Assembly: GCA_030427865.1 (NCBI GenBank)
Contig: JAUICK010000007.1
Location: 76,831 to 140,830, forward strand
Direction of reading: 5' to 3'
Length of the DNA stretch: 64,000 nt
DNA from: Bacteroidia bacterium
GTDB taxonomy: Bacteria; Bacteroidota; Bacteroidia; Flavobacteriales; Flavobacteriaceae
Shown here: positions 41,421-57,313 of the stretch, in pieces
Layout of the letters: the number at the start of each line of letters is the position of its first letter
Numbering within the stretch: the stretch's first letter is position 1
Made by a program: the position numbers and the translations under genes
Notes under the pieces: generated by a model
Told to the model about the DNA's origin: nothing
Database searches by the model: none
The model's input: the letters and a program-made list of their open reading frames with translations, nothing else

Positions 41421-41557
41421 GTTTTTAGAAGCCATTTCCAGCTTTCGCTACTCGCTTTTTTTAGTTTGTTCTCGATACAAATTTGTTCATTCTTCTCAAA
41501 TTCACTCGAACAGACACTAAAAAAGAGCTCAAACAGACCGCTCAATCTGGGCTAAAC
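41421..41557 (-). repeat. Structured interspersed repeat (possible Flavo-1 RNA), copy 1, with nested REP at 41468-41515
   Basis: Arms match the copies at 46163 and 51259; the central loop is expanded to ~60 nt. Confidence 0.8.
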
Positions 41558-41598
41558 ATATTTGCCAATACATAGAATAAATTTAAAAAGTCATTTCA

Positions 41599-43459: not shown

Positions 43460-44152
43460 TTAACTTTTTTGAATTAAATCTATCATTAACTTAAAAGAAT
43501 CTTCATTTTTTATCCATTTATTAAATGGTAAATTTTGAAGATTTTTCTTTGGATATAAATAATAAAACATGGTTAAAGCTGCTAAAAAACTCCCAGCTTT
43601 AGAAGGATGAAACCCATCAAAACTATATAAATCTTCTTTATTTTTTTTGTTATTATAAGCTTTCCAAATTTTGCCAACAGGAAACAACAAAGCATTGTTT
43701 TTTTGAGCAGCAATTGTATGATTTTCAATGACCAAATCAAAAGTATAATACCATCTTTTAGATGTCCAAACCATAAAATAAACCAATTTTATATTGAACT
43801 TATCACACAACTTTTTAAGTTTGGCTCCATCTTCAATCAACATTTTTTTTCCTTCTAACTGACTTGAAGGTCCTTGCTGAACAACTAAATAATCGAATTT
43901 ATTTTTTTGCAATAGCTTTTGCAACTTACCTTCATTTAAATGATCTATTATAGCATAATTTGGTGCACATAAACTTTTAGTTTTAATTGACTCATTAAAC
44001 TCTTTTGCAATTTCTTCCAACATTTTAGGTAAATTATTGGAATAGGTTAAACTGTTGCCCACAAATAATATTTTTTGGGCATTTGATTGTAAGCCAATCA
44101 GTAAAATCCATAGAAAAAAAACAGTTTTCAGTTTACAAGAAAATTTCATCAA
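43460..44152 (-). CDS. SGNH/GDSL-like hydrolase
   Basis: ILFVGNSLT, VVQQ, DGFHPS..GS. Confidence 0.8.
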   Translation of the reverse strand: MMKFSCKLKTVFFLWILLIGLQSNAQKILFVGNSLTYSNNLPKMLEEIAKEFNESIKTKSLCAPNYAIIDHLNEGKLQKLLQKNKFDYLVVQQGPSSQLEGKKMLIEDGAKLKKLCDKFNIKLVYFMVWTSKRWYYTFDLVIENHTIAAQKNNALLFPVGKIWKAYNNKKNKEDLYSFDGFHPSKAGSFLAALTMFYYLYPKKNLQNLPFNKWIKNEDSFKLMIDLIQKS

Positions 44153-45234
44153 CCCAAAATTTTATTTACCAAATTTTGTTTTGCTTTTTCATCATTACCA
44201 AATAGCCATTGTAAGACGTTATCTTCCCAGATTTCTCCTTTTTCGGTTTCAGAAATGATGTTTTTTTCAATCGCTAAATCTAAAATTTTACCAGGATAAG
44301 AAGATTGTTTGTCACTTTCCATTTCGCCTAAAGGATAAGGGTCATCCAAACCCATTAAAACTTGTTTTGTACCCTGTCTTTCGAACATTAATTTTAATGA
44401 ATCTGTATCGTGCACTAAAGTGTCAAAGAAAATATTTGGATGCCCAACTGCTTTTCTTGGATGCGTTTTTCCTTCAAACAAATCTGGTCTTCCATCAAAA
44501 CCTTGTATTCTTCTTCCCAAATTCATTTGTGCTAATTGACCTCCGTGCGCAAAACAAGTTCTGATATTTGGAAAACGTTCTTGCATTCCGTTTAAGGTAT
44601 AAAAATGATAGGCATCTCCACATTGCGCCAACATCCAAATTAAGTGAAAACGCCAATTGGTGTTTTCTAATTTTATCATTTTATCTCCATCATAAGGATG
44701 AATTTCTATGGCTAATTTGTATTTGTCTGCGAGTTCAAAAATTCGATCATTTTCTTCATCAAAAACACAGCGCCATTGCCCAATAGAATCCATAAAATGC
44801 GTGGGCAAACACAAAACTTTTAATTCTAATTCGTTTATACAACGTTCCATTTCATATAGCGCACCATAAATAAAACCAGGATGCACTACAAAACCACAGG
44901 TAAATTTATCTGGATGATTGTGTTGCACTTTTGCATTAAAATCGTTCTGAAAACGGAGCGCTTTTTTCATTTCTTCTAAGCGCAAACCATTACCATACAA
45001 TTGAGAAAGATTTAGCACTACTGCATGATCTATTTTGTTTTTTTCCATCCATAACAATTTCTCATTAAGAAAAAAACTGGAATCTGTTACAGGTCGTTTC
45101 CAACCTTTTTGCAACATATGTTTACGCTCATTATCTACCCAGAAAATTTCTTTTTCCTTCATAAATTGAGGGATTTCTTCTGGATAAGGCAATAAATGTG
45201 AATGTCCGTTTATACGTAGTTTTCTTCGTGTCAT
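44149..45234 (-). CDS. nbaD: Amidohydrolase family; likely 2-amino-3-carboxymuconate-6-semialdehyde decarboxylase (ACMSD)
   Basis: HSH metal motif, IHPYD, AHGG, FDTLVHD, GLDDPYPLG; position in the kynurenine cluster. Confidence 0.82.
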   Translation of the reverse strand: MTRRKLRINGHSHLLPYPEEIPQFMKEKEIFWVDNERKHMLQKGWKRPVTDSSFFLNEKLLWMEKNKIDHAVVLNLSQLYGNGLRLEEMKKALRFQNDFNAKVQHNHPDKFTCGFVVHPGFIYGALYEMERCINELELKVLCLPTHFMDSIGQWRCVFDEENDRIFELADKYKLAIEIHPYDGDKMIKLENTNWRFHLIWMLAQCGDAYHFYTLNGMQERFPNIRTCFAHGGQLAQMNLGRRIQGFDGRPDLFEGKTHPRKAVGHPNIFFDTLVHDTDSLKLMFERQGTKQVLMGLDDPYPLGEMESDKQSSYPGKILDLAIEKNIISETEKGEIWEDNVLQWLFGNDEKAKQNLVNKILG

Positions 45235-45245
45235 ATTTTCTTAAT

Positions 45246-45512
45246 TTATGAAAACCAAAATATATTCATTTGATCTAAAAACTCTTTGTCATTAATTGGT
45301 AATTCAGAACTTAATACTGAATCAATTCCGCATCTTGGGCAACATGCAGTTTCTCCACCCTTTGGCTCTAAAATCCATTCTTTTATTTCTTTTGATTCAA
45401 ATAGGTTTTCACAATAAAAACATCCACAAAATTTATTCCGAATAATTTCTTCTTTATGAGAAGAACTTCTATCATGGGCTTCAATAAGATATTTTTCTGT
45501 AAACTTTTTCAA
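45246..45512 (-). CDS. Small Cys-rich putative zinc-binding protein
   Basis: CGCFYC...CCPRCGIDSVL; TTG start. Confidence 0.75.
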   Translation of the reverse strand: MKKFTEKYLIEAHDRSSSHKEEIIRNKFCGCFYCENLFESKEIKEWILEPKGGETACCPRCGIDSVLSSELPINDKEFLDQMNIFWFS

Positions 45513-45513
45513 T

Positions 45514-46044
45514 TTATTTAACTTTATTTGGTGGTTGCATTACAGTTCCACAATTATTGCAAGTACATTTTTCTATATCAGAATAATATTTATCGAAAAT
45601 TATTGGCATATCTGTTTCGATATTATCCAATTTAAATTTCTTTCTGTACAATTGATTTCCACAGTTTTCGCAATACCATTCTAAGGCATCTTTCATTTTC
45701 TTTTTGCGTGGATACTCAATAACCAAACCTACTGTATTTGCTTTTCTTTGAGGTGAATGTGGCACTTTTGCGGGCAATAAATAAATATCGCCTTCTTTGA
45801 TTTCTACATCTATCATTTTGCCTTTATCGTCTATGATTTTTAAAATCATGTCTCCTTCTACTTGGTAGAAAAACTCTGGAGTTTCATTGTAATGATAATC
45901 TTTTCTGTTATTGGGGCCACCAACAACCATCACAATATACTCACCATTATCCCAAACGCATTTGTTGCCCACAGGTGGTTTTAATAAATGACGATGTTCA
46001 TCAATCCATTTTTTAAAATTTAAAGGTTGTACTAAATTGCTCAT
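45514..46044 (-). CDS. nbaC: 3-hydroxyanthranilate 3,4-dioxygenase
   Basis: LKPPVGNK, VGGPN.RKDYH...EFF, PHSPQR, two CxxC rubredoxin-like pairs. Confidence 0.96.
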   Translation of the reverse strand: MSNLVQPLNFKKWIDEHRHLLKPPVGNKCVWDNGEYIVMVVGGPNNRKDYHYNETPEFFYQVEGDMILKIIDDKGKMIDVEIKEGDIYLLPAKVPHSPQRKANTVGLVIEYPRKKKMKDALEWYCENCGNQLYRKKFKLDNIETDMPIIFDKYYSDIEKCTCNNCGTVMQPPNKVK

Positions 46045-46162
46045 TTCTTTTAGATTTTTAGATTGTTGGATATTGAGATTGTTAGACTTTAAAATTACTA
46101 ATTTTAAATGGCTTTTTAAAAAACTCTTTTTGTTGGCTTTTAATTACTAAATTCTGCAAACA

Positions 46163-46250
46163 GGTTTAGCCCTGATTGAAGCAATTGTTTGAGCTCTTTT
46201 TGAGGAACGAAAAAAAGCGAGTGCGAAAAGCAGGAAATAGCTTCTAAAAA
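46163..46250 (+). repeat. Structured interspersed repeat (possible Flavo-1 RNA), copy 2
   Basis: GGTTTAGCCCTGATTGAAGC...GAGCTCTTTTT-loop-AAAAAAAGCGAGTGCGAAAAGCAGG; abuts the SDR stop codon. Confidence 0.85.
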
Positions 46251-46252
46251 AA

Positions 46253-47032
46253 TTACAAACTTTTTGTTCTTCCGCCATCTACAGGAATATTAATTCCGTT
46301 AATATAACTTGCTTGCTCGCTTGCTAAAAACACAATTGCTGCTGCCACTTCTTCTGGCTTTGCAAATCGTTTTGCGGGTGCTGCATTTTTCATAGCTTCT
46401 GCAACTTCATTAAAAGATTTTTCTGTTTTTTGAGCTTTGTTATTAATGATTTCTTTTAGACGTTCTGTACTTGTTGCACCTGGCAACACATTGTTAACGG
46501 TGATGCCGAATTCGCCCAACTCGTTTGCTAAGGTTTTAGACCAATTGGCAACTGCGCCACGTATGGTATTGCTTACACCTAAACCATCTAAAGGTTGTTT
46601 TACGGAAGTTGAAATGACGTTGATAATTCGCCCAAAACATTGGCTTTTCATAAACGGAACCAACGTTTGAACCAAAATGTGATTGCATTTTAAATGTTGG
46701 GTAAATGCATTTTCGAACTCTTCTATTGTTGCATTAAAAATAGGACCTCCTGCTGGACCTCCTGTATTATTTACAAGAATATGGAACTGTAAATCTGACT
46801 TTTCTAATACTTTTTTTAACTCATTGGGTTTAGAGAAATCTGCAATAAGATAGCTATGACATTGTTTGCCATTATGCTTCATTTCAGACAAAGCAGCTTT
46901 TAACTTTTCTTGGTTTCTAGCTAAAAGTGTTACGTTTGCTCCTTCTTCTGCTAATAGTATAGCAGCTGCTTTACCAATACCTTGTGTACTACCACAAACT
47001 AATGCGTTTTTGTTTTTTATGTTTAAATTCAT
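46253..47032 (-). CDS. SDR family oxidoreductase
   Basis: CGSTQGIG, NNTGGP, SNTIR, NNVLPG, IPVDGG; atypical active site lacking YxxxK. Confidence 0.9.
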   Translation of the reverse strand: MNLNIKNKNALVCGSTQGIGKAAAILLAEEGANVTLLARNQEKLKAALSEMKHNGKQCHSYLIADFSKPNELKKVLEKSDLQFHILVNNTGGPAGGPIFNATIEEFENAFTQHLKCNHILVQTLVPFMKSQCFGRIINVISTSVKQPLDGLGVSNTIRGAVANWSKTLANELGEFGITVNNVLPGATSTERLKEIINNKAQKTEKSFNEVAEAMKNAAPAKRFAKPEEVAAAIVFLASEQASYINGINIPVDGGRTKSL

Positions 47033-47037
47033 ATTTC

Positions 47038-47112
47038 TGCCATTCCTGTGTAAACAGGAATCTATTTTTATTTGGTTATTCTGCTATGGATTCCTGCCTG
47101 CTCAGGAACGAT
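47038..47112. repeat. Inverted pair of REP-like hairpins
   Basis: CATTCCTGTGTAAACAGGAATCTA ... TGGATTCCTGCCTGCTCAGGAACGA. Confidence 0.7.
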
Positions 47113-47116
47113 AAGA

Positions 47117-47335
47117 CTATTTATTTTCAATAATCATTTTCTTAATCTTAACCGCTTTTTCAAAATGATCTAATAGATGTGTTTCAATCCACCAAGTGGC
47201 AACTTCCATTAACAAATTTGGGTTGTCATTTTTGTTCTTAAAAAATGCGTAGAATGATACACCTACATTTTCTCATTTTTTTAAAATTTTCTCATCACAA
47301 ATTAGAATGATTTTTTCTCTGATTTCTTTAATCAT
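47117..47335 (-). pseudogene. DUF6500-like small protein interrupted by an in-frame TGA
   Basis: MIKEIREKIILICDEKILKK*ENVGVSFYAFFKNKNDNPNLLMEVATWWIETHLLDHFEKAVKIKKMIIENK*; TGA at 47273-47275. Confidence 0.75.
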
Positions 47336-48773
47336 ATTTTATACAAACATTTTTAGGTTCAGTAAAAAAACGTAAAGCTTCAAAACCACCTTCTCTACCT
47401 ACTCCACTTTCTTTTGCGCCTCCAAAAGGGGTTCTTAAATCACGTAACATCCAAGTGTTTACCCAAACAATTCCAGTTTGTAGTTGTTTAGAAAACTGCA
47501 TGGTTCTATTTAGATTGTTTGTCCATAAAGTTGTTGATAAACCATATTTAACTCCGTTTGCTAAAGTTAATGCTTCTTCATCAGTCTTAAATGACATTAA
47601 GGTTACTACTGGTCCAAATATTTCTTCTTGATTCAATCTACAATTGTTGTCTTGAACTTCTATAATTGTGGGTTGTAAATAATACCCATTTTCATTTCCT
47701 GAGACCACTACTTTATTTCCTCCAAACAAGATTTTTCCTCCTTCATTTTCTGAAATATCAATATAAGATTTTACTTTTTCTAAATGCTGTTTAGATACTA
47801 ATGCTCCAATATCTGTGGTATTTTCTGATGGATTTCCAACCTTTAATTCAGAAACTTTTTTGATAAAGTCTTCTTTAAATTTTTCATAAATAGTTTCTTC
47901 TACCAAAATACGACTTCCACACAAACAAATTTGACCTTGGTTGGCAAAGGAAGAACGCACAGTGGTTTGCAACATATCATCATAATCGCAATCTGCAAAA
48001 ATGATATTTGGGTTTTTTCCTCCTAATTCTAATGATAGCTTTTTAAACATTGGAGCTGCAACTTTGGCAATATGTGCGCCTGTTTTTGTACCTCCTGTAA
48101 AACTAATCGCTTTTATATTTGGATGCTCAACAATTGCCTGACCAGTGGTAGTTCCTAATCCGTGAACAATATTTAAAACTCCTTTTGGCAAACCTGCTTC
48201 GTTACAAATTTCGCCTAAAAAATAGGCTGTTATTGGTGTAATTTCACTTGGTTTAGCAACAACGCAATTTCCTGATGCAATTGCAGGTGCAATTTTCCAA
48301 GTGAAGAGATACAAAGGCAAATTCCAAGGAGAAATACAACCTACAACCCCAAGTGGTTGACGTAAAGTAAAATTAACAGCATTTAAACCCACACTTTCGT
48401 GAGCTTCTGATGAAAACTGGGTAATTGCATTTGCAAAAAACTGAAAGTTGCTTGCTGCTCTTGGAATATCTACTGCTTTTGCTAAACTAATAGGCTTTCC
48501 ATTGTCTTTGGATTCGGCAGCTGCTAAAACATCTATTTTTTCTATAATTAAATTGGCAATTTTTGATAGTATTTTACTTCTTTCATCTAAAGTAGTATTG
48601 CTCCAAGCTGGAAAAGCATCTGCTGCAGCTTGGTATGCTTTTTCTACATCTTCTTTTGAAGAATTTGGAATTTGTCCGTAGATTTCTCCTATTGATGGAT
48701 TGTAGTTATCAATATATACTCCATGTATTGGATTTTCGAATTTTCCGTTAATATAGTTTTGGATTTTATTCAT
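47328..48773 (-). CDS. nbaE: Aldehyde dehydrogenase; likely 2-aminomuconate-semialdehyde dehydrogenase
   Basis: ISPWNLP, FTGGT, LELGGKNP, NQGQICLCGSR, EEIFGPV, DLRTPFGG; context. Confidence 0.85.
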   Translation of the reverse strand: MNKIQNYINGKFENPIHGVYIDNYNPSIGEIYGQIPNSSKEDVEKAYQAAADAFPAWSNTTLDERSKILSKIANLIIEKIDVLAAAESKDNGKPISLAKAVDIPRAASNFQFFANAITQFSSEAHESVGLNAVNFTLRQPLGVVGCISPWNLPLYLFTWKIAPAIASGNCVVAKPSEITPITAYFLGEICNEAGLPKGVLNIVHGLGTTTGQAIVEHPNIKAISFTGGTKTGAHIAKVAAPMFKKLSLELGGKNPNIIFADCDYDDMLQTTVRSSFANQGQICLCGSRILVEETIYEKFKEDFIKKVSELKVGNPSENTTDIGALVSKQHLEKVKSYIDISENEGGKILFGGNKVVVSGNENGYYLQPTIIEVQDNNCRLNQEEIFGPVVTLMSFKTDEEALTLANGVKYGLSTTLWTNNLNRTMQFSKQLQTGIVWVNTWMLRDLRTPFGGAKESGVGREGGFEALRFFTEPKNVCIKYD

Positions 48774-50279
48774 TTATAAATCTGTATTTAAAATTGATAA
48801 ACAAATTTTAATTCCTTGTCTAATATTTCCAATTCTAATATTTTCATTTGGATTGTGTTGATTGTTATCCATATTAACCATTGGTACAATAATAGCAGGA
48901 ATACTTAATTCATTAATTGCTGGGATAATAGGTACTGTGCCTCCCATAGTTCTAATGCTCACAGGTTTTTGTTGAAACGCACTAGTTAAAGCGTTTCTTA
49001 GTTTTTGTCCAAAAGGTGAATTTAACGGAGTTCTAAATGCATTTACACCTGAGTTTCCTTTAAAAGTAACAATTTTGGGGTTTTCTAACCTTTCTTTATC
49101 TGTTGGCTCTCTGTCTAAAACTAAAAAACCCTGTTCTCTTATATGTGTTTTTATTTTTTCTAATTGTTTTGCTCCATCAGTTTCTACCACTAAACGAACA
49201 TCTATGTGCGCAGTTGCATATTCTGGAATAATGGTTTTTAAACCTTTTCCTTTCCATGAAGTTCCTATTTGCCTCACATTTAAAGTTGGATACTGTAATG
49301 CCTCTTGATAGTTCTTACCAACTGCTTCAGGCTTGAAAATAAACAGTGAGTTATTTATTTTTTCTGTGTTATCTGGAACAGAATTTAGAATATTAGCAAC
49401 TTCTTTATCAATTGTAATTCCTTTATAATACTCTTTAATCAAAACTTTTCCTTCTTCAGATTTCATAGAAGATAATAACCTCGAAAGGCTAAATACAGGG
49501 TTCTGAACATAGTTGCCATAATGCCCACTGTGCTGAGGAAGTTTAGAACCATAGGTTGTAATACTACATCTTGCAATTCCTCTACACCCAAAAGTTAATG
49601 TTGGTTGATTCGAATTGTGTGCAGGACCATCCATTATAATCATATAATCTGATTGATATTGGTTCTTGTATTTTTTTAATGTTGATAAAAATCCTTTTGA
49701 ACCATATTCTTCTTCTAAATCGAAAATAATTTTAATGTTGAATTTTGGAGTTTTGTTTTGTTTTTGCATCAATTCTAAGGCTGATAAAAACATTACAACT
49801 GGTGCTTTATCATCGGCAGCTGCTCTTGCAAAAATCCGCCAATCGTCATTAATTTTTTCTTGTAAACTCGACCATGCTATAGATTTCCATCCTCCATCTG
49901 TGTTTTTTTCTTTTAAAACCGGACGAAATGGGTCTTTTTGATTCCACATTTTCGTGTTTACAGCTTGTCCGTCTAAATGAAAGTAAAACAAAACTGTTTT
50001 AAATGAAGGGTTTACAATTCTTTCTGCAAATAAAACTGGTAAGGTAGAAGATTCAAGGTTTTTTAATTGAAAGCCTACTTTTCTGTATTTTTCTTTAACC
50101 CAACTTATGTTTTCATACATTTTCTTGATATTCGAAGGCAGGTTAGGTATGCTTACAAATGTTTTATGATTCATTATAACTTCATAAAGTTTCGAGTCTA
50201 TTTTCGTATCCCAATTTTCTTGGGCATTCAAAAAACAGAACGAAAATAAAACTGTAAATAATACTATTATTTTTTTCAT
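48774..50279 (-). CDS. Secreted M20/M25/M40 metallohydrolase
   Basis: Signal peptide; HLDGQ, RAAADDK, EEEYGS-like motif, DGP, HNPNEN. Confidence 0.85.
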
Positions 50280-50683
50280 GATTGTTTCTTATAAGCAATT
50301 ACTTTAATTTCTACTACCAAATCTGGATGTGGCAATTGATGTACTGCAACTGTGGTTCTTGTTGGGCCTGTTGCTGTATTAAAAAACTCTGCATAAGCTC
50401 TATTATAATCTGCAAAATCATTCATATTTACTAAGAAAGAAGAAACATCTACCACATCTTTTAAACTTGCACCAACTGTGTTTAAGTTTTGATTAATGTT
50501 TTGTAAAACTTCTTTGGTTTGTGTATATGCATCTAATTTTTTAGTTCCCATTTCATCAATAATAACCACTCCTGCAATGGTATTATCTGCTCTTCTTGAG
50601 CTGGTTCCTGAAACAAAAATAAAATCGCCCACTACTTTTACATGTGGATATGCGCCTCTTGGTGTTACTTTTTTTTCTGACAT
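50276..50683 (-). CDS. nbaF: RidA-family protein; likely 2-aminomuconate deaminase
   Basis: [36 protein letters not shown]. Confidence 0.85.
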
Positions 50684-50685
50684 AA

Positions 50686-51206
50686 TTATTTTGTTGCTAA
50701 TTCTAATAATTTTAGAGTTGTATTATAATTTCTTGTGGTTGCTGTTACATTCAATTTTCTTTCAAATAAATTATTAGAAAGTTTGGTTTTCGCAAAGGTT
50801 GATGGACAATAGAGATAAATCAAATCATCAACTATTTTATATGCGTCATCTCCAACATTTTTTATTTCTATTTTTGTATTTGTGGGTATATTGTCTAAAA
50901 AAATAAATGCTACTATTTTCTCGTTTTCTATTGAAAAAGGATAATTCTCAATCGCTTTTTTCCATTCTAAAATTGTTTTAGCAATCACTGGAACAGTATA
51001 TCCAAATCTATTTAAAATTTCTTGTTTTATTTTCTTACAAATTACTGATTTACTTTCCTCAGCATCTAAAATGATATTCCCACTTTGAATATAAGTTTGT
51101 ACATTTTGAAAACCCAAATTGTATAATAAACTACGTAAATCTGCCATAGGTAATTTGTTTTCCCAGAGACATTTATGCCACGTAATAAAACAATGTATTT
51201 TCTCAT
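50686..51206 (-). pseudogene. DUF1697 family gene with a 1-nt frameshift
   Basis: MRKYIVLLRGINVSGK from the ATG at 51206 is out of frame with NKLPMADLRS..YIQSGN; one A missing at 51158-51161. Confidence 0.8.
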
Positions 51207-51258
51207 TTATTTAAACTTTCTATTTCTTATTTAATAAATTAATGGTTTTTATAAATAA

Positions 51259-51348
51259 GGTTTAGCCCTGATTGAAGCATTTGTTTGAGCTCTTTTTTCT
51301 TTTCAGAAAAAAAGCGAGTGCGGAAAGCAGGATTAGCTTCAAAAAAAA
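51259..51348 (+). repeat. Structured interspersed repeat (possible Flavo-1 RNA), copy 3
   Basis: Near-identical arms to copy 2 with a different 8-nt loop; abuts the kmo stop codon. Confidence 0.85.
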
Positions 51349-52773
51349 TTACAATCCAGCTATTTTATCTTCCCTTAAAATATCTTCTGTTTCTTCTTTT
51401 ACTTTGTTCAAAACAATTTTTAGTTCTTTTTTGGTCATTTCTAATGATGTTGAAATGTCTTTATCAGCAATTAAATTCAACAACGCTTTGTCTTGGGCTC
51501 TACCTCTTTTCATTGCTTCATTATACCCTATTTCTTCATTAAAAGTGACTAATGAATATTTTGAAAAATACTGATTTGGAAAATGCTTTTCTAAATCCAT
51601 TTCAAGTTGCCTTTTTTCTTTAAACAAAGGATTTGCAACGTGATCTCGCATTTCGTAAAAATTATCAATTGCCAAATCTGCAATGGCGTCAGTGTCTTTT
51701 TTTCTTGCTTTTTCATAAGCTTTAAAAACAGTTTCCCAATCAAAGATTTCTCGACTGCGCTCGAAATGACACAAAACCTCATCAAAAACTACTACATCTT
51801 CAAAAGAAGCATTCATTCCTTGTCCGTAAAAAGGAACAATGGCGTGAGCAGCATCTCCCATTAACAAGGTTTTCTTTTGATAAGACCAAGGACTGCATTT
51901 TACAGTTCCTAAAGCTCCAGTTGGATTGTTGGTAAACTCTTCTTTTATATTAGGAATCAATGCCAAAGCATCTGGAAATTCTTTCTCGAAAAACTCGGTT
52001 ATTTTTTCTTCGGATGTTAAATTTTCGAAATTAAATTCGCCTTCATCATAACTCAAAAAGAGTGTTACTGTAAAACTTCCATCTATATTTGGTAAAGCAA
52101 TTAGCATAAAATCGCCACGAGGCCAAATGTGTAAATGGTCTTTACTTATTTGATGATTTCCATTTTTATCTGCTGGAATTTCCAGCTCTTTATATCCGTG
52201 ATTTAAATAATTTTGAGCATAACTAAATAAGAATTTACGTTCTGAAATATAACTTTTACGTAACGATGAACCTGCTCCATCTGTTCCGAAAATAACATCT
52301 GCTTTTACTTTAAATTTCTTACCAGTTTCATAACTTTTAAAATGAGCTACTTTGTTTTCTATGTCTACTTTTTTACATCCACTATTAAAATGAATGTTTA
52401 CATTTTTGTGCTTTTCTGCCTCATCTAATAAAATGGCATTTAAATTGCCTCTTGAAATGGAATTGATATATTCTCCTGTTCTACCTGAATAGTTCGAAGC
52501 AAATGTATTTCCTACTCTGTCATGCATTAATCTTCCATACATGGGTATGCAGATTTCTCTGACTTTTTCTTCCACTCCACATAAACGCAAGGCTTTTAAA
52601 CCTCTATCTGACAATGCTAAATTGATGCTTCTTCCAGCAGAAATATCTACTTTACGTAAATCGGGTCTGCTTTCATATACCTCTACTTTATAACCTCTTT
52701 GTGCTAAACGTAAAGCTAAAAGCGAACCACAAAGTCCAGCTCCAATGATTACTATTTTATCGTTTTTATTCAT
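51349..52773 (-). CDS. kmo: Kynurenine 3-monooxygenase
   Basis: IIGAGLCG, GRSINLALSDRG, HIWPRG..MLIALPN.DGSFT, GDAAHAIVPFYGQGMN. Confidence 0.96.
   Translation of the reverse strand: MNKNDKIVIIGAGLCGSLLALRLAQRGYKVEVYESRPDLRKVDISAGRSINLALSDRGLKALRLCGVEEKVREICIPMYGRLMHDRVGNTFASNYSGRTGEYINSISRGNLNAILLDEAEKHKNVNIHFNSGCKKVDIENKVAHFKSYETGKKFKVKADVIFGTDGAGSSLRKSYISERKFLFSYAQNYLNHGYKELEIPADKNGNHQISKDHLHIWPRGDFMLIALPNIDGSFTVTLFLSYDEGEFNFENLTSEEKITEFFEKEFPDALALIPNIKEEFTNNPTGALGTVKCSPWSYQKKTLLMGDAAHAIVPFYGQGMNASFEDVVVFDEVLCHFERSREIFDWETVFKAYEKARKKDTDAIADLAIDNFYEMRDHVANPLFKEKRQLEMDLEKHFPNQYFSKYSLVTFNEEIGYNEAMKRGRAQDKALLNLIADKDISTSLEMTKKELKIVLNKVKEETEDILREDKIAGL
51744..51771 (-). repeat. REP-like repeat translated in-frame inside kmo (CHFERSREI)
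   Basis: TGTCATTTCGAGCGCAGTCGAGAAATCT, codons 335-343; 26/28 identical to 24348-24375. Confidence 0.8.
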
Positions 52774-52789
52774 TTTTTATTATTTGAAA

Positions 52790-52822
52790 AGACCTCAAAG
52801 GTTTTAAAAACCTTTGAGGTCT
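52790..52822. repeat. Perfect palindrome between kynU and kmo
   Basis: AGACCTCAAAGGTTTT-A-AAAACCTTTGAGGTCT, 16-bp arms. Confidence 0.9.
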
Positions 52823-54080
52823 AAACTAACGTTTTTAAGACTTTTACCATTCTAAACACATCCTCAAAAGAATTATACATTGGCACAGGAGCACAACGTA
52901 TAACATCTGGCTCTCTCCAATCTGTAATCACATTGTTTTGGGTTAGTTTTTTGTGTAAATTTTTGTCGGCATTTTTTACTTGAATGGATAATTGGCAACC
53001 TCTTTCTTTTGGATTTTTTGGTGTGATGATTTTGATGTCATTAGAACCAATTTCGTTGATTAAAAACTCAAAATAACCCGTTAGTTTTTCTGATTTTTCT
53101 CTTAAAGCTTCCATACCAACCTCATCAAATAAATCTAAAGCCGCTTTAATAGCTGCCATAGATAATATTGGTGGATTAGACAGTTGCCAACCTTCTGCAC
53201 CTTGCATAACATCAAAAGGTTGTCTCATATTAAAACGTGTTTCTTTATTATGATTCCACCAACCTGCAAAACGTGGTAAGTCTTTATTTTTTGAATGTTT
53301 TTCGTGCACAAATAATCCTGCCAAACTTCCTGGACCAGAATTGAGATATTTGTAGGTACACCAAGCAGCAAAATCTACACCAGATTCATGTAAATTAGGT
53401 TGAATATTTCCTGCTCCATGAGCCAAATCTATTCCAACTACACAATTTTTTGAATGCCCGATTTCTGCAATCCTTTTTAAATCTAAAAACTGACCTGTAT
53501 AATAATTTACACCGCCAATTAGCAACAATGCAATTTCATCTCCTTGTTCTTCAACAATGACTTCTAAATCTTTTATATTCAGTAATTCTTCTCCTTTTCT
53601 TGGTTTCCACTCAATGACATCATCCTCAGAAAAACCATGAAATTTTAGTTGTGATTGTACTGCATATCTATCTGAAGGAAAAGCATCCGACTCAATAACT
53701 ATTTTATATTTGGTTTTGGTTGGTCTGTAAAAACTTACCATTAACAAATGTAAATTTGTGGTGAGCGTATTCATTACCACAACTTCAATTGGTTTTGCAC
53801 CTACTATTTTTGCCATTTTATCGGTTAAATACTCGTGGTAATTTACCCAAGGATTTTTTGCTTCAAAATGACCTTCTACACCAAAATTTGCCCAATCTTC
53901 TAATTCTTGATGGATATACTCTTTAGTTGATTTTGGTTGTAAACCCAGAGAATTCCCTGTAAAATATAACCAGTCTTTTCCATTTTTATCTTTTGGAATA
54001 AGAAATCGATTTCGTAAATGAGAAAGTTTATCTGCTGCGTCTAACTGTTTGGCGAATGTTAACGAATTTTGATATTGCAT
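52821..54080 (-). CDS. kynU: Kynureninase
   Basis: YFTGNSLGLQP, MNTLTTNLH, DLAHGAGN, WCTYKYLNSGPG PLP lysine, WQLSNPP; -7 box TATCTTTG at 54104-54111. Confidence 0.97.
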   Translation of the reverse strand: MQYQNSLTFAKQLDAADKLSHLRNRFLIPKDKNGKDWLYFTGNSLGLQPKSTKEYIHQELEDWANFGVEGHFEAKNPWVNYHEYLTDKMAKIVGAKPIEVVVMNTLTTNLHLLMVSFYRPTKTKYKIVIESDAFPSDRYAVQSQLKFHGFSEDDVIEWKPRKGEELLNIKDLEVIVEEQGDEIALLLIGGVNYYTGQFLDLKRIAEIGHSKNCVVGIDLAHGAGNIQPNLHESGVDFAAWCTYKYLNSGPGSLAGLFVHEKHSKNKDLPRFAGWWNHNKETRFNMRQPFDVMQGAEGWQLSNPPILSMAAIKAALDLFDEVGMEALREKSEKLTGYFEFLINEIGSNDIKIITPKNPKERGCQLSIQVKNADKNLHKKLTQNNVITDWREPDVIRCAPVPMYNSFEDVFRMVKVLKTLV

Positions 54081-55420: not shown

Positions 55421-57313
55421 TTAATACAAAACTCTAAACTTAATAGTACCTTCTACTTTTCTTAGTTTTTCAATAACTTCTTTGTTGTATTCTTTGTCTA
55501 AATCTGTAATTACGTATCCTACTTTTGGGTCTGTTGATAAATATTGACCTGTAATATTCAAATCGTATTTTGCTAAAATTTTATTGATTTTTGCCATTAC
55601 ACCTGGTACATTTTTATGGATATGTAAAAAACGATGTGCATTGGTTTGTCTTGGCAAACGAATGTTTGGAAAATTTACTGCATCTACTGTATTTCCAGAA
55701 TTAATATACGCCATAATTTTACTTGGTACAAAATCTGCAATATCTCTTTGCGCTTCTTCTGTACTTCCACCAACATGTGGTGTTAAAATTACGTTTGGTA
55801 ATCCTTTTAATTCTGTATAAAATTCTCCGTTTTTTCTTGGTTCAGAAGGATATACATCAACTGCGGCTCCAGCTATTTTACCACTTCTTAAAGCATGTGT
55901 TAACGCATTAATATCTACTACAAAACCACGAGAAAGGTTTACTAAGTAAGCCCCATCTTTCATCTGAGTAATTTCTTTTTCTCCAAAGAAATTTTTATTG
56001 GCAGCATTGTCATCAACGTGTAAAGTTACTACATCAGAAATTTTTAACAATTCTTCTAATGTACTCATCTTTGTAGCATTTCCTAAGGCTAATTTATCTT
56101 CAACATCATAATAACAAACATCCATACCTAATGCCTCTGCTAATACTGATAATTGCTTACCAATATTACCATAACCTACAATACCTAATTTTTTACCGCG
56201 AACTTCTCTTGACCCTTCAGCAGTTTTATTCCACTGACCATTGTGAATTTCTGTACTTCTTTGAAACACAGAACGCATTAACATGATAATTTCTCCAATT
56301 GCTAATTCTACCACAGAACGCGTATTACTGTAAGGCGCATTAAAAACTACAATACCTTTTTCTTTACAGGCTTCTAAATCTATTTGTTTTGTACCAATAC
56401 AAAACGCACTTACTACCATAAGTTTTTCTGCTGCTTCTACAACTTTTTGCGTAACATTTGTTTTAGAACGAATACCTAAAACGTGTACGTCTTTAATTTT
56501 TTCTATCAATTCATCTTCAGACAAACTTTTAGACACTGTTTCTACCGAAAATCCATCTGTAGATAATTTTGCAAAAGCATCTGGATGTACATTTTCTAAT
56601 AATAAAATCTTAATTCTATTCTTTGGGTAACTTATATTTCTTGGCAACTTGTTAACGTATAAAAATTCATCTAAATTTGGGGCTATATGGTCTGCGTTTT
56701 CTGTTGTTTTATCACGAGATACATTTTCTGTATAAGCAAAAAATTTATCGGCTACACCAGCTTTACGAGTTACATAATCGCTATAACCATCACCAATCAC
56801 TTGTATTTCTCCTTCAAGGTTCATGTCTTTTAAACACTTAATTTTTCCATTGTGTTGAGAAAGCGGATTGCTGCTATCAAAGCTAACAATTTTTCCAGTT
56901 TCATCATACTCAAAAGTATTCGCATAAACTCTTTCTGAAGGAATATTGTATGCAGCTACAATAGGATCTATAAATTCTTTAAACCCGCAAGAAATTACAT
57001 AAATATCGTTTGCAAATTCTTCGAAAAATTCTTTATTACTTTCTATAGATTTAGATACTTGCTTTTTTAAAGCTATAACTAAAGCCTCTAAATCAGTTTT
57101 ATTTGCTTCTAATAATCGAATTCTTCTTTCTAAAGATTCTGTAAAAGAAATTTCGCCATCGATACCTAAATTTGTGATATCTATTATTTCTTGAATAATT
57201 TCATCTTTTTTAGGATTTTTCTCTAATGTAATTTCTGCTAATACATCTAACGCTTCAACGCGCGTTAGCGTGCTGTCAAAATCGAAAATATAATTTCTTT
57301 TTGTGGTAATCAT
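55421..57313 (-). CDS. serA: D-3-phosphoglycerate dehydrogenase fused to an N-terminal HAD phosphoserine-phosphatase-like domain
   Basis: FDFDSTL and GDGYSD HAD motifs; GIRSKT, GYGNIG, TPHVGGSTEEAQ, ACT domain; -7 box at 57352-57359. Confidence 0.93.
   Translation of the reverse strand: MITTKRNYIFDFDSTLTRVEALDVLAEITLEKNPKKDEIIQEIIDITNLGIDGEISFTESLERRIRLLEANKTDLEALVIALKKQVSKSIESNKEFFEEFANDIYVISCGFKEFIDPIVAAYNIPSERVYANTFEYDETGKIVSFDSSNPLSQHNGKIKCLKDMNLEGEIQVIGDGYSDYVTRKAGVADKFFAYTENVSRDKTTENADHIAPNLDEFLYVNKLPRNISYPKNRIKILLLENVHPDAFAKLSTDGFSVETVSKSLSEDELIEKIKDVHVLGIRSKTNVTQKVVEAAEKLMVVSAFCIGTKQIDLEACKEKGIVVFNAPYSNTRSVVELAIGEIIMLMRSVFQRSTEIHNGQWNKTAEGSREVRGKKLGIVGYGNIGKQLSVLAEALGMDVCYYDVEDKLALGNATKMSTLEELLKISDVVTLHVDDNAANKNFFGEKEITQMKDGAYLVNLSRGFVVDINALTHALRSGKIAGAAVDVYPSEPRKNGEFYTELKGLPNVILTPHVGGSTEEAQRDIADFVPSKIMAYINSGNTVDAVNFPNIRLPRQTNAHRFLHIHKNVPGVMAKINKILAKYDLNITGQYLSTDPKVGYVITDLDKEYNKEVIEKLRKVEGTIKFRVLY

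Follow-up and report, generated by a model that had tools for sequence, protein, structure and literature searches.

The window analysed here, a stretch of 64,000 nt from contig JAUICK010000007.1 of assembly GCA_030427865.1 (positions 76,831 to 140,830; host genome of 3.34 Mb, 99.99% complete), carried a cluster of kynurenine degradation genes, within which an atypical short-chain dehydrogenase/reductase (SDR) of 259 residues was encoded on the minus strand at nt 46253-47032. As the original prediction, made from the letters of the window, had stated, this gene lay between nbaE and nbaC, that is, between the genes for an aldehyde dehydrogenase (ALDH) and 3-hydroxyanthranilate 3,4-dioxygenase (3-HAO). 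The chances appear somewhat better than even that the SDR is an NADPH-dependent 2-oxohex-3-enedioate reductase giving 2-oxoadipate, and, judged from sequence, the cluster would encode the 2-aminomuconate pathway in a variant form, for which a candidate enzyme is well supported. The overall interpretation first given to the SDR, reduction of the enoate to 2-oxoadipate, was partly supported. It has long been taken for granted that 2-aminomuconate is converted to 2-oxoadipate, but this conversion is without a gene in the searchable literature; a literature search, which missed most subscription journals, found no paper assigning a function to the SDR clade. With the SDR as candidate, the 2-oxoadipate-forming step becomes directly testable with a published enzyme cascade.

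Membership in the SDR superfamily was indicated by matches to PF13561/PF00106 over cut-off and by the invariant residues G14, G18 and G20, and a structure model (pLDDT 96) of P0129, which belongs to the clade and is 54% identical to the window protein, had a Rossmann fold with the Gly-rich motif of the superfamily. The position of the classical YxxxK motif was occupied by S154-N-T-I-R158, in agreement with the replacement by SNTIR noted originally, and the classical tetrad positions were H113, S141, S154 and R158. In all of 160 loci compared, H113, S141-T-S143, S154, N155, R158, R191 and R39 were invariant, while K145 and R255 were nearly so, and there was no conserved Tyr anywhere. Proteins of this clade are now often labelled 3-oxoacyl-ACP (acyl carrier protein) reductase; the window protein lacked the Asn-Ser-Tyr-Lys tetrad and YxxxK of classical SDR/FabG enzymes and scored below all FabG cut-offs, and a FabG annotation was rejected on these grounds. 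An Arg following a small residue at the cofactor site of SDRs specifies NADPH, and the invariant R39 after a small residue at position 38, together with S15, points to NADPH as the likely cofactor. In a quick tree the kynurenine SDR clade had an SH-aLRT support of 95, and tree and alignment together showed that His113 sets it apart from generic S-N-x-x-R SDRs. Most members of a Phycisphaerales cluster of these proteins had 260 aa, and one, P0141, was a form of 428 aa with about 170 extra N-terminal residues; this part was considered as a gene fusion that might give a functional clue and was set aside, being without a Pfam match.

The best PDB matches of the SDR were uncharacterised proteins. 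The nearest characterised ones, both by sequence and by the fold of the clade model, were AerF of Microcystis aeruginosa (PDB 6jh7/6jha/6jhb) and BacG/YwfH of Bacillus subtilis (PDB 3u49/3u4c), which are C=C reductases; this kinship lends chemical support to reduction of an enoate. The SDR shared with them about 30% identity, an NADPH-binding SDR fold, the absence of YxxxK (S154/R158 here) and a K-[EQ]-P motif, and the P0129 model superposed on the BacG/AerF structures with TM values of 0.91-0.94. In the BacG reaction, C4 of a 2-oxo-3-enoate receives the hydride, and 2-oxohex-3-enedioate has the reactive group of the BacG substrate, its reduction giving 2-oxoadipate, so conjugate reduction of a 2-oxo-3-enoate may, by analogy, be common to them. 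However, H113, N117, N155 and R158 of the SDR align with K113, Y117, S155 and N158 of BacG, which we take to be its catalytic tetrad, and the context of the SDR is catabolic, whereas BacG and AerF belong to prephenate-derived peptide biosynthesis. To judge from these residues, the SDR would at best work like BacG and is not a member of the BacG/AerF group. The best matches by sequence, TM1169 (1o5i), APE0912 (2z1n) and Burkholderia proteins 5va8/5vps/5idx, had the same S-N-x-x-R replacement and GGP loop as the SDR but, unlike it, no His113 in the alignments shown; generic S-N-x-x-R SDRs from databases fell outside the kynurenine clade in the tree, which did not include these five PDB entries.

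Gene neighbourhoods linked the SDR to the pathway. Among 80 loci of Flavobacteriaceae with the SDR, 2-aminomuconate-6-semialdehyde dehydrogenase (AMSDH) was near in 76, 3-HAO in 76, ACMS decarboxylase (ACMSD) in 77, the Rid-family deaminase in 72 and an M20 peptidase in 7, and a kynurenine gene was present, in many gene orders, in 43 of 54 metagenome SDR loci of at least 5 kb (GC 30-72%). The link extended to Planctomycetota and Gemmatimonadota: a Phycisphaerales locus had the order SDR-ALDH-x-Rid with kynB, KMO, kynU, ACMSD and 3-HAO close by, and in a Gemmatimonadota locus the SDR stood beside kynB and kynU. A phylogenetic profile of 201 Bacteroidota genomes contained 43 with 3-HAO, 31 with an AMSDH ortholog and 35 with an SDR ortholog. 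The SDR was found in 28 of the 31 AMSDH-bearing genomes (27 of the 28 with His113, G116 being borderline) and in one of the 12 genomes that had 3-HAO without AMSDH, 10 of which were from one family. The SDR clade tracks the catabolic branch of the kynurenine pathway, and the co-occurrence with nbaC to nbaF that had been proposed as a check was borne out in the loci as well as in the genomes. Since the deaminase accompanied AMSDH in all profiled AMSDH genomes, the SDR is placed after deamination; the deaminated acid is a more likely substrate than 2-aminomuconate, because an AmnE-type deaminase travels with AMSDH and the SDR.

The upper steps encoded here (3-HAO, ACMSD, AMSDH and deaminase, leading to 4-oxalocrotonate) were those of the amn cluster of Pseudomonas AP-3, the nba cluster and the tryptophan cluster of Burkholderia cenocepacia. 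These clusters end in a decarboxylase, hydratase, aldolase and acetaldehyde dehydrogenase, whereas none of the four was found in this genome and the SDR stood in the cluster instead. The original prediction had noted the lack of tautomerase, decarboxylase, hydratase and aldolase genes in the window and had allowed that a lower meta pathway elsewhere would overturn it; the absence extended to the whole genome. Profile searches gave no match for 4-oxalocrotonate tautomerase (PF01361), the DmpG communication domain (PF07836) or DmpH (TIGR03218) and no match over cut-off for the aldolase model TIGR03217, and tblastn of the genome with dmpH, dmpE and dmpF queries was likewise negative, so a lower meta pathway located elsewhere in the genome was discarded. 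Two weak matches to the aldolase model, far under cut-off, are by size probably isopropylmalate/citramalate synthases, and the two proteins of the FAA-hydrolase fold were a fumarylacetoacetase and a YcgM/PRK10691-like protein. The missing tautomerase means little, because the amn route of Pseudomonas AP-3 has none, this enzyme not being needed after the deaminase (PMC6742747).

Three AMSDH-bearing genomes lacked the SDR (G106, G048 and G111). A dmpH/E-like pair together with a DmpG over cut-off was found only in G106 and G048 among 40 genomes tested and in none of the 28 with both AMSDH and SDR, so that the expected absence of dmp-like genes where the SDR is present held; in G106, DmpF was also over cut-off and the DmpH/E-like proteins were below the curated ones. 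In the family of G106 (f9), 96 of 101 genomes had the SDR. Two of the remaining five belonged to genus g24, and both, and only these, had the dmpH/E-like pair, while the other three were fragmented assemblies with genus mates that carry the SDR. In GC-rich genomes of f9 the SDR is surrounded by long open frames, and these did not match any pathway gene. Within the order to which G048 belongs, dmpH was present in 14 of 20 loci with 3-HAO and the SDR in none of these loci, genome-wide absence having been examined for G048 only. Several of these loci had the order aldh-rid-dmpE-dmpF-dmpG-dmpH-hao-acmsd-kynU-kmo, and other Bacteroidota had sdr-aldh-rid-hao-acmsd-kynU-kmo, so that one backbone is found with two endings. 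Beside these comparisons, a dmpE-like hydratase gene in G221 (L206:1993-2784) stood next to three genes conserved as a block; relatives have the SDR, together with another gene, upstream of this block, which may point to an in-place replacement.

Taken together, the cluster enzymes would, by homology, degrade kynurenine by way of 3-hydroxyanthranilate as far as 2-aminomuconate, and the Rid deaminase would convert the latter into 2-oxohex-3-enedioate (4-oxalocrotonate). Using NADPH, the SDR would then reduce this 2-oxo-3-enoate by adding hydride at C4, with the enolate held at the non-classical site formed by H113, S141, N155 and R158, the carboxylates by the conserved basic residues K145, R191 and R255, and a proton supplied by His or water to give 2-oxoadipate. 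The latter could pass to glutaryl-CoA through the 2-oxoglutarate dehydrogenase complex, presumably the single SucA complex, and on to crotonyl-CoA by glutaryl-CoA dehydrogenase, so that one reductase would stand in place of the decarboxylase-hydratase-aldolase-acetaldehyde dehydrogenase ending. Both glutaryl-CoA dehydrogenase and SucA were encoded in the genome, and a sink for 2-oxoadipate was present; HglS was searched for in the genome and not found, and a route from 2-oxoadipate through it was dismissed. In two other families (L236, L237, L088 and L241) a glutaryl-CoA dehydrogenase gene was located few genes from the kynurenine cluster, and in G170 it adjoined that for TDO.

The original description of such a route as eukaryote-like holds loosely: a reductive step exists in animals, but the metazoan 2-aminomuconate reductase is reported to be ASPDH, and its product to be L-2-aminohex-3-enedioate, not 2-oxoadipate (bioRxiv 10.64898/2026.06.05.730449). 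By analogy, ASPDH and the SDR would both be NAD(P)H reductases that follow directly on AMSDH in the kynurenine pathway; ASPDH, however, belongs to the aspartate dehydrogenase family, unrelated to SDRs, and needs no deamination, whereas the window has an SDR with a co-clustered deaminase. According to the same preprint, of June 2026, which names neither SDRs nor Bacteroidota, reductase and deaminase are mutually exclusive in eukaryotes, and fungi are given a deaminase with no step reported after it, the link to 2-oxoadipate being left open for animals (bioRxiv 10.64898/2026.06.05.730449). In Aspergillus, an SDR has been drawn next to 3-hydroxyanthranilate clusters (PMC7842363, legend of Fig. 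5).

Several observations weigh against assigning the SDR to 2-oxohex-3-enedioate reduction. Its closest PDB relatives, as mentioned, have no assigned function; Tyr117 of BacG is Asn in the SDR, and the classical Ser141, which is Gly in BacG and AerF, is kept, a combination that may leave room for carbonyl reduction. Glutaryl-CoA dehydrogenase does not discriminate, since genomes that have the SDR and genomes that lack it encoded it alike (54 of 54 tested). The mutual exclusion of SDR and dmp genes rests on two independent lineages and not on a large statistic; a Fisher test gave p 0.006 and was not relied on, kin not being independent. G111 (L091, G111:C11:103000-121000) had a complete aldh-rid-hao-acmsd-kynU-kmo cluster with neither a His113 SDR nor dmp genes, and its pathway may finish in yet a third way or lead nowhere. 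Finally, 7 of the 35 SDR genomes were without AMSDH and deaminase, five that were tested also lacked KMO, and the motif was intact in them. All seven orphan SDRs had more unique substitutions than their in-pathway kin, about 1.3-1.7-fold on average, which fits relaxed constraint and fits a second role as well.

Carbonyl reduction would mean that the same substrate is reduced at C2 by 1,2-addition to 2-hydroxyhex-3-enedioate, a product that the cell would have to excrete or channel into some other route. The genomic evidence as a whole suits this reading just as well, the catalytic Ser141 is invariant, and sorbose reductase, a carbonyl reductase, was also a near PDB match; it is nevertheless rather improbable, with no Tyr at 154 or conserved elsewhere, with the nearest Tyr-less characterised relatives reducing C=C bonds, and with no further conserved gene for the hydroxy acid seen in the clusters. 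About as doubtful is a direct reduction of 2-aminomuconate, or its imine tautomer, to 2-aminohex-3-enedioate or 2-aminoadipate in the manner of ASPDH. The PDB matches included noroxomaritidine/norcraugsodine reductase, an SDR active on enones and imines, and NAD(P)H reduction of 2-aminomuconate does exist in animals (bioRxiv 10.64898/2026.06.05.730449); against this, a deaminase of the AmnE type accompanies the SDR and would compete for the substrate, which is at odds with the eukaryotic exclusion of one by the other.

Reactive enones may arise near kynureninase, an example being spontaneously deaminated kynurenine, and an SDR acting as a broader ene-reductase could clear them without being the terminal step. 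The intact motif of the orphan copies would agree with this, as would the SDR genes that abut kynU without lower genes in G062, G138 and some metagenome loci, but such adjacency is the expected deletion remnant of sdr-aldh-rid-hao-acmsd-kynU, and the orphan copies evolve faster. Moreover, the genomes with 3-HAO and without AMSDH face the same metabolites and yet just one of the 12 had the SDR, and the swap with dmp genes would be left without explanation; this role is considered unlikely. That the SDR is carried along as a passenger, or binds NADP(H) without being a catalyst, with a pathway ending at oxalocrotonate or picolinate, is very unlikely: the classical Tyr/Lys pair is gone and G111 maintains its cluster with neither ending, but active-site positions are invariant, rapid turnover is seen for true passengers, among them the M20 peptidase, and the f9 genomes that kept the SDR include many small ones and some in which it is unlinked from AMSDH.

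The reductive assignment can be widened to a proposal with a chance only a little above even, namely that the SDRs with a His/Asn/Arg active site, a clade widespread among bacteria, are 4-oxalocrotonate reductases, serving a reductive glutaryl-CoA ending that would be dominant in aerobic Bacteroidota, present in other phyla and interchangeable with a dmpEFGH cassette. If true, a large SDR clade would be re-annotated, tryptophan catabolism would be completed in abundant marine Bacteroidota, and a Tyr-free mechanism would be added to the SDR ene-reductases.

The SDR was 93% identical to that of Polaribacter aquimarinus, by which the host is probably Polaribacter-like. All genes of the cluster were on the minus strand, in the order kynU, KMO, DUF1697, Rid, M20 peptidase, ALDH, SDR, 3-HAO, amidohydrolase and a DUF4886-like ORF, and profile and PDB matches confirmed the six pathway enzymes named originally (KynU, KMO, NbaC, ACMSD, NbaE and NbaF), KMO by fold and position. 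Kynureninase KynU (nt 52821-54080) scored 459 bits against TIGR01814 (cut-off 246). Kynurenine 3-monooxygenase (KMO, nt 51349-52773) was assigned from its FAD_binding_3 (FAD-monooxygenase) fold and its place beside kynU, which is kept in related loci. The 2-aminomuconate deaminase of the NbaF/AmnE type (nt 50276-50683) matched PDB 6izh (AmnE) with E 1e-47, the runner-up having 4e-17, and AMSDH of the NbaE/AmnC type (nt 47328-48773) had AMSDH proteins as top PDB matches (E 2e-128), the best NCBIfam model, TIGR03216, being below cut-off. 3-HAO (NbaC, nt 45514-46044) was over cut-off with TIGR03037 and PRK13264. The amidohydrolase was a divergent ACMSD (NbaD, nt 44149-45234), for which all PDB matches were ACMSD (best human, 3e-25); by E-value the human enzyme was a closer match than that of Pseudomonas, and identity to the form that most other Bacteroidota have was about 25-34%. 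Three further genes encoded a DUF1697 protein without known pathway role, probably a passenger (PF08002, nt 50686-51147), the passenger M20 peptidase (PF01546, nt 48774-50279), and a DUF4886-like protein with a weak PF16227 match below cut-off, probably outside the pathway (nt 43460-44152).

TDO, a cyclase-family (KynB-like) protein, nadC and nadA were encoded elsewhere in the genome, outside the cluster; nadA thus coexisted with a route to quinolinate from kynurenine, and there was a single nadC (loci C18:290001 and C6:177509). A kynurenine route for NAD alone would have 3-HAO and nadC without AMSDH or deaminase, and a role of the cluster in NAD synthesis only was rejected, nadA, AMSDH and deaminase all being present. 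A dispersed repeat of about 90 bp (nt 46156-46245) followed directly after the SDR stop codon; a second copy (nt 51258-51340) followed that of KMO, a partial copy was located near nt 41517-41565, and 21 matches of at least 60 bp occurred across the genome. Inspection by eye of nt 55421-57313 revealed one ORF of 630 aa in which a HAD phosphatase-like domain at the N-terminus may precede a SerA-like dehydrogenase.

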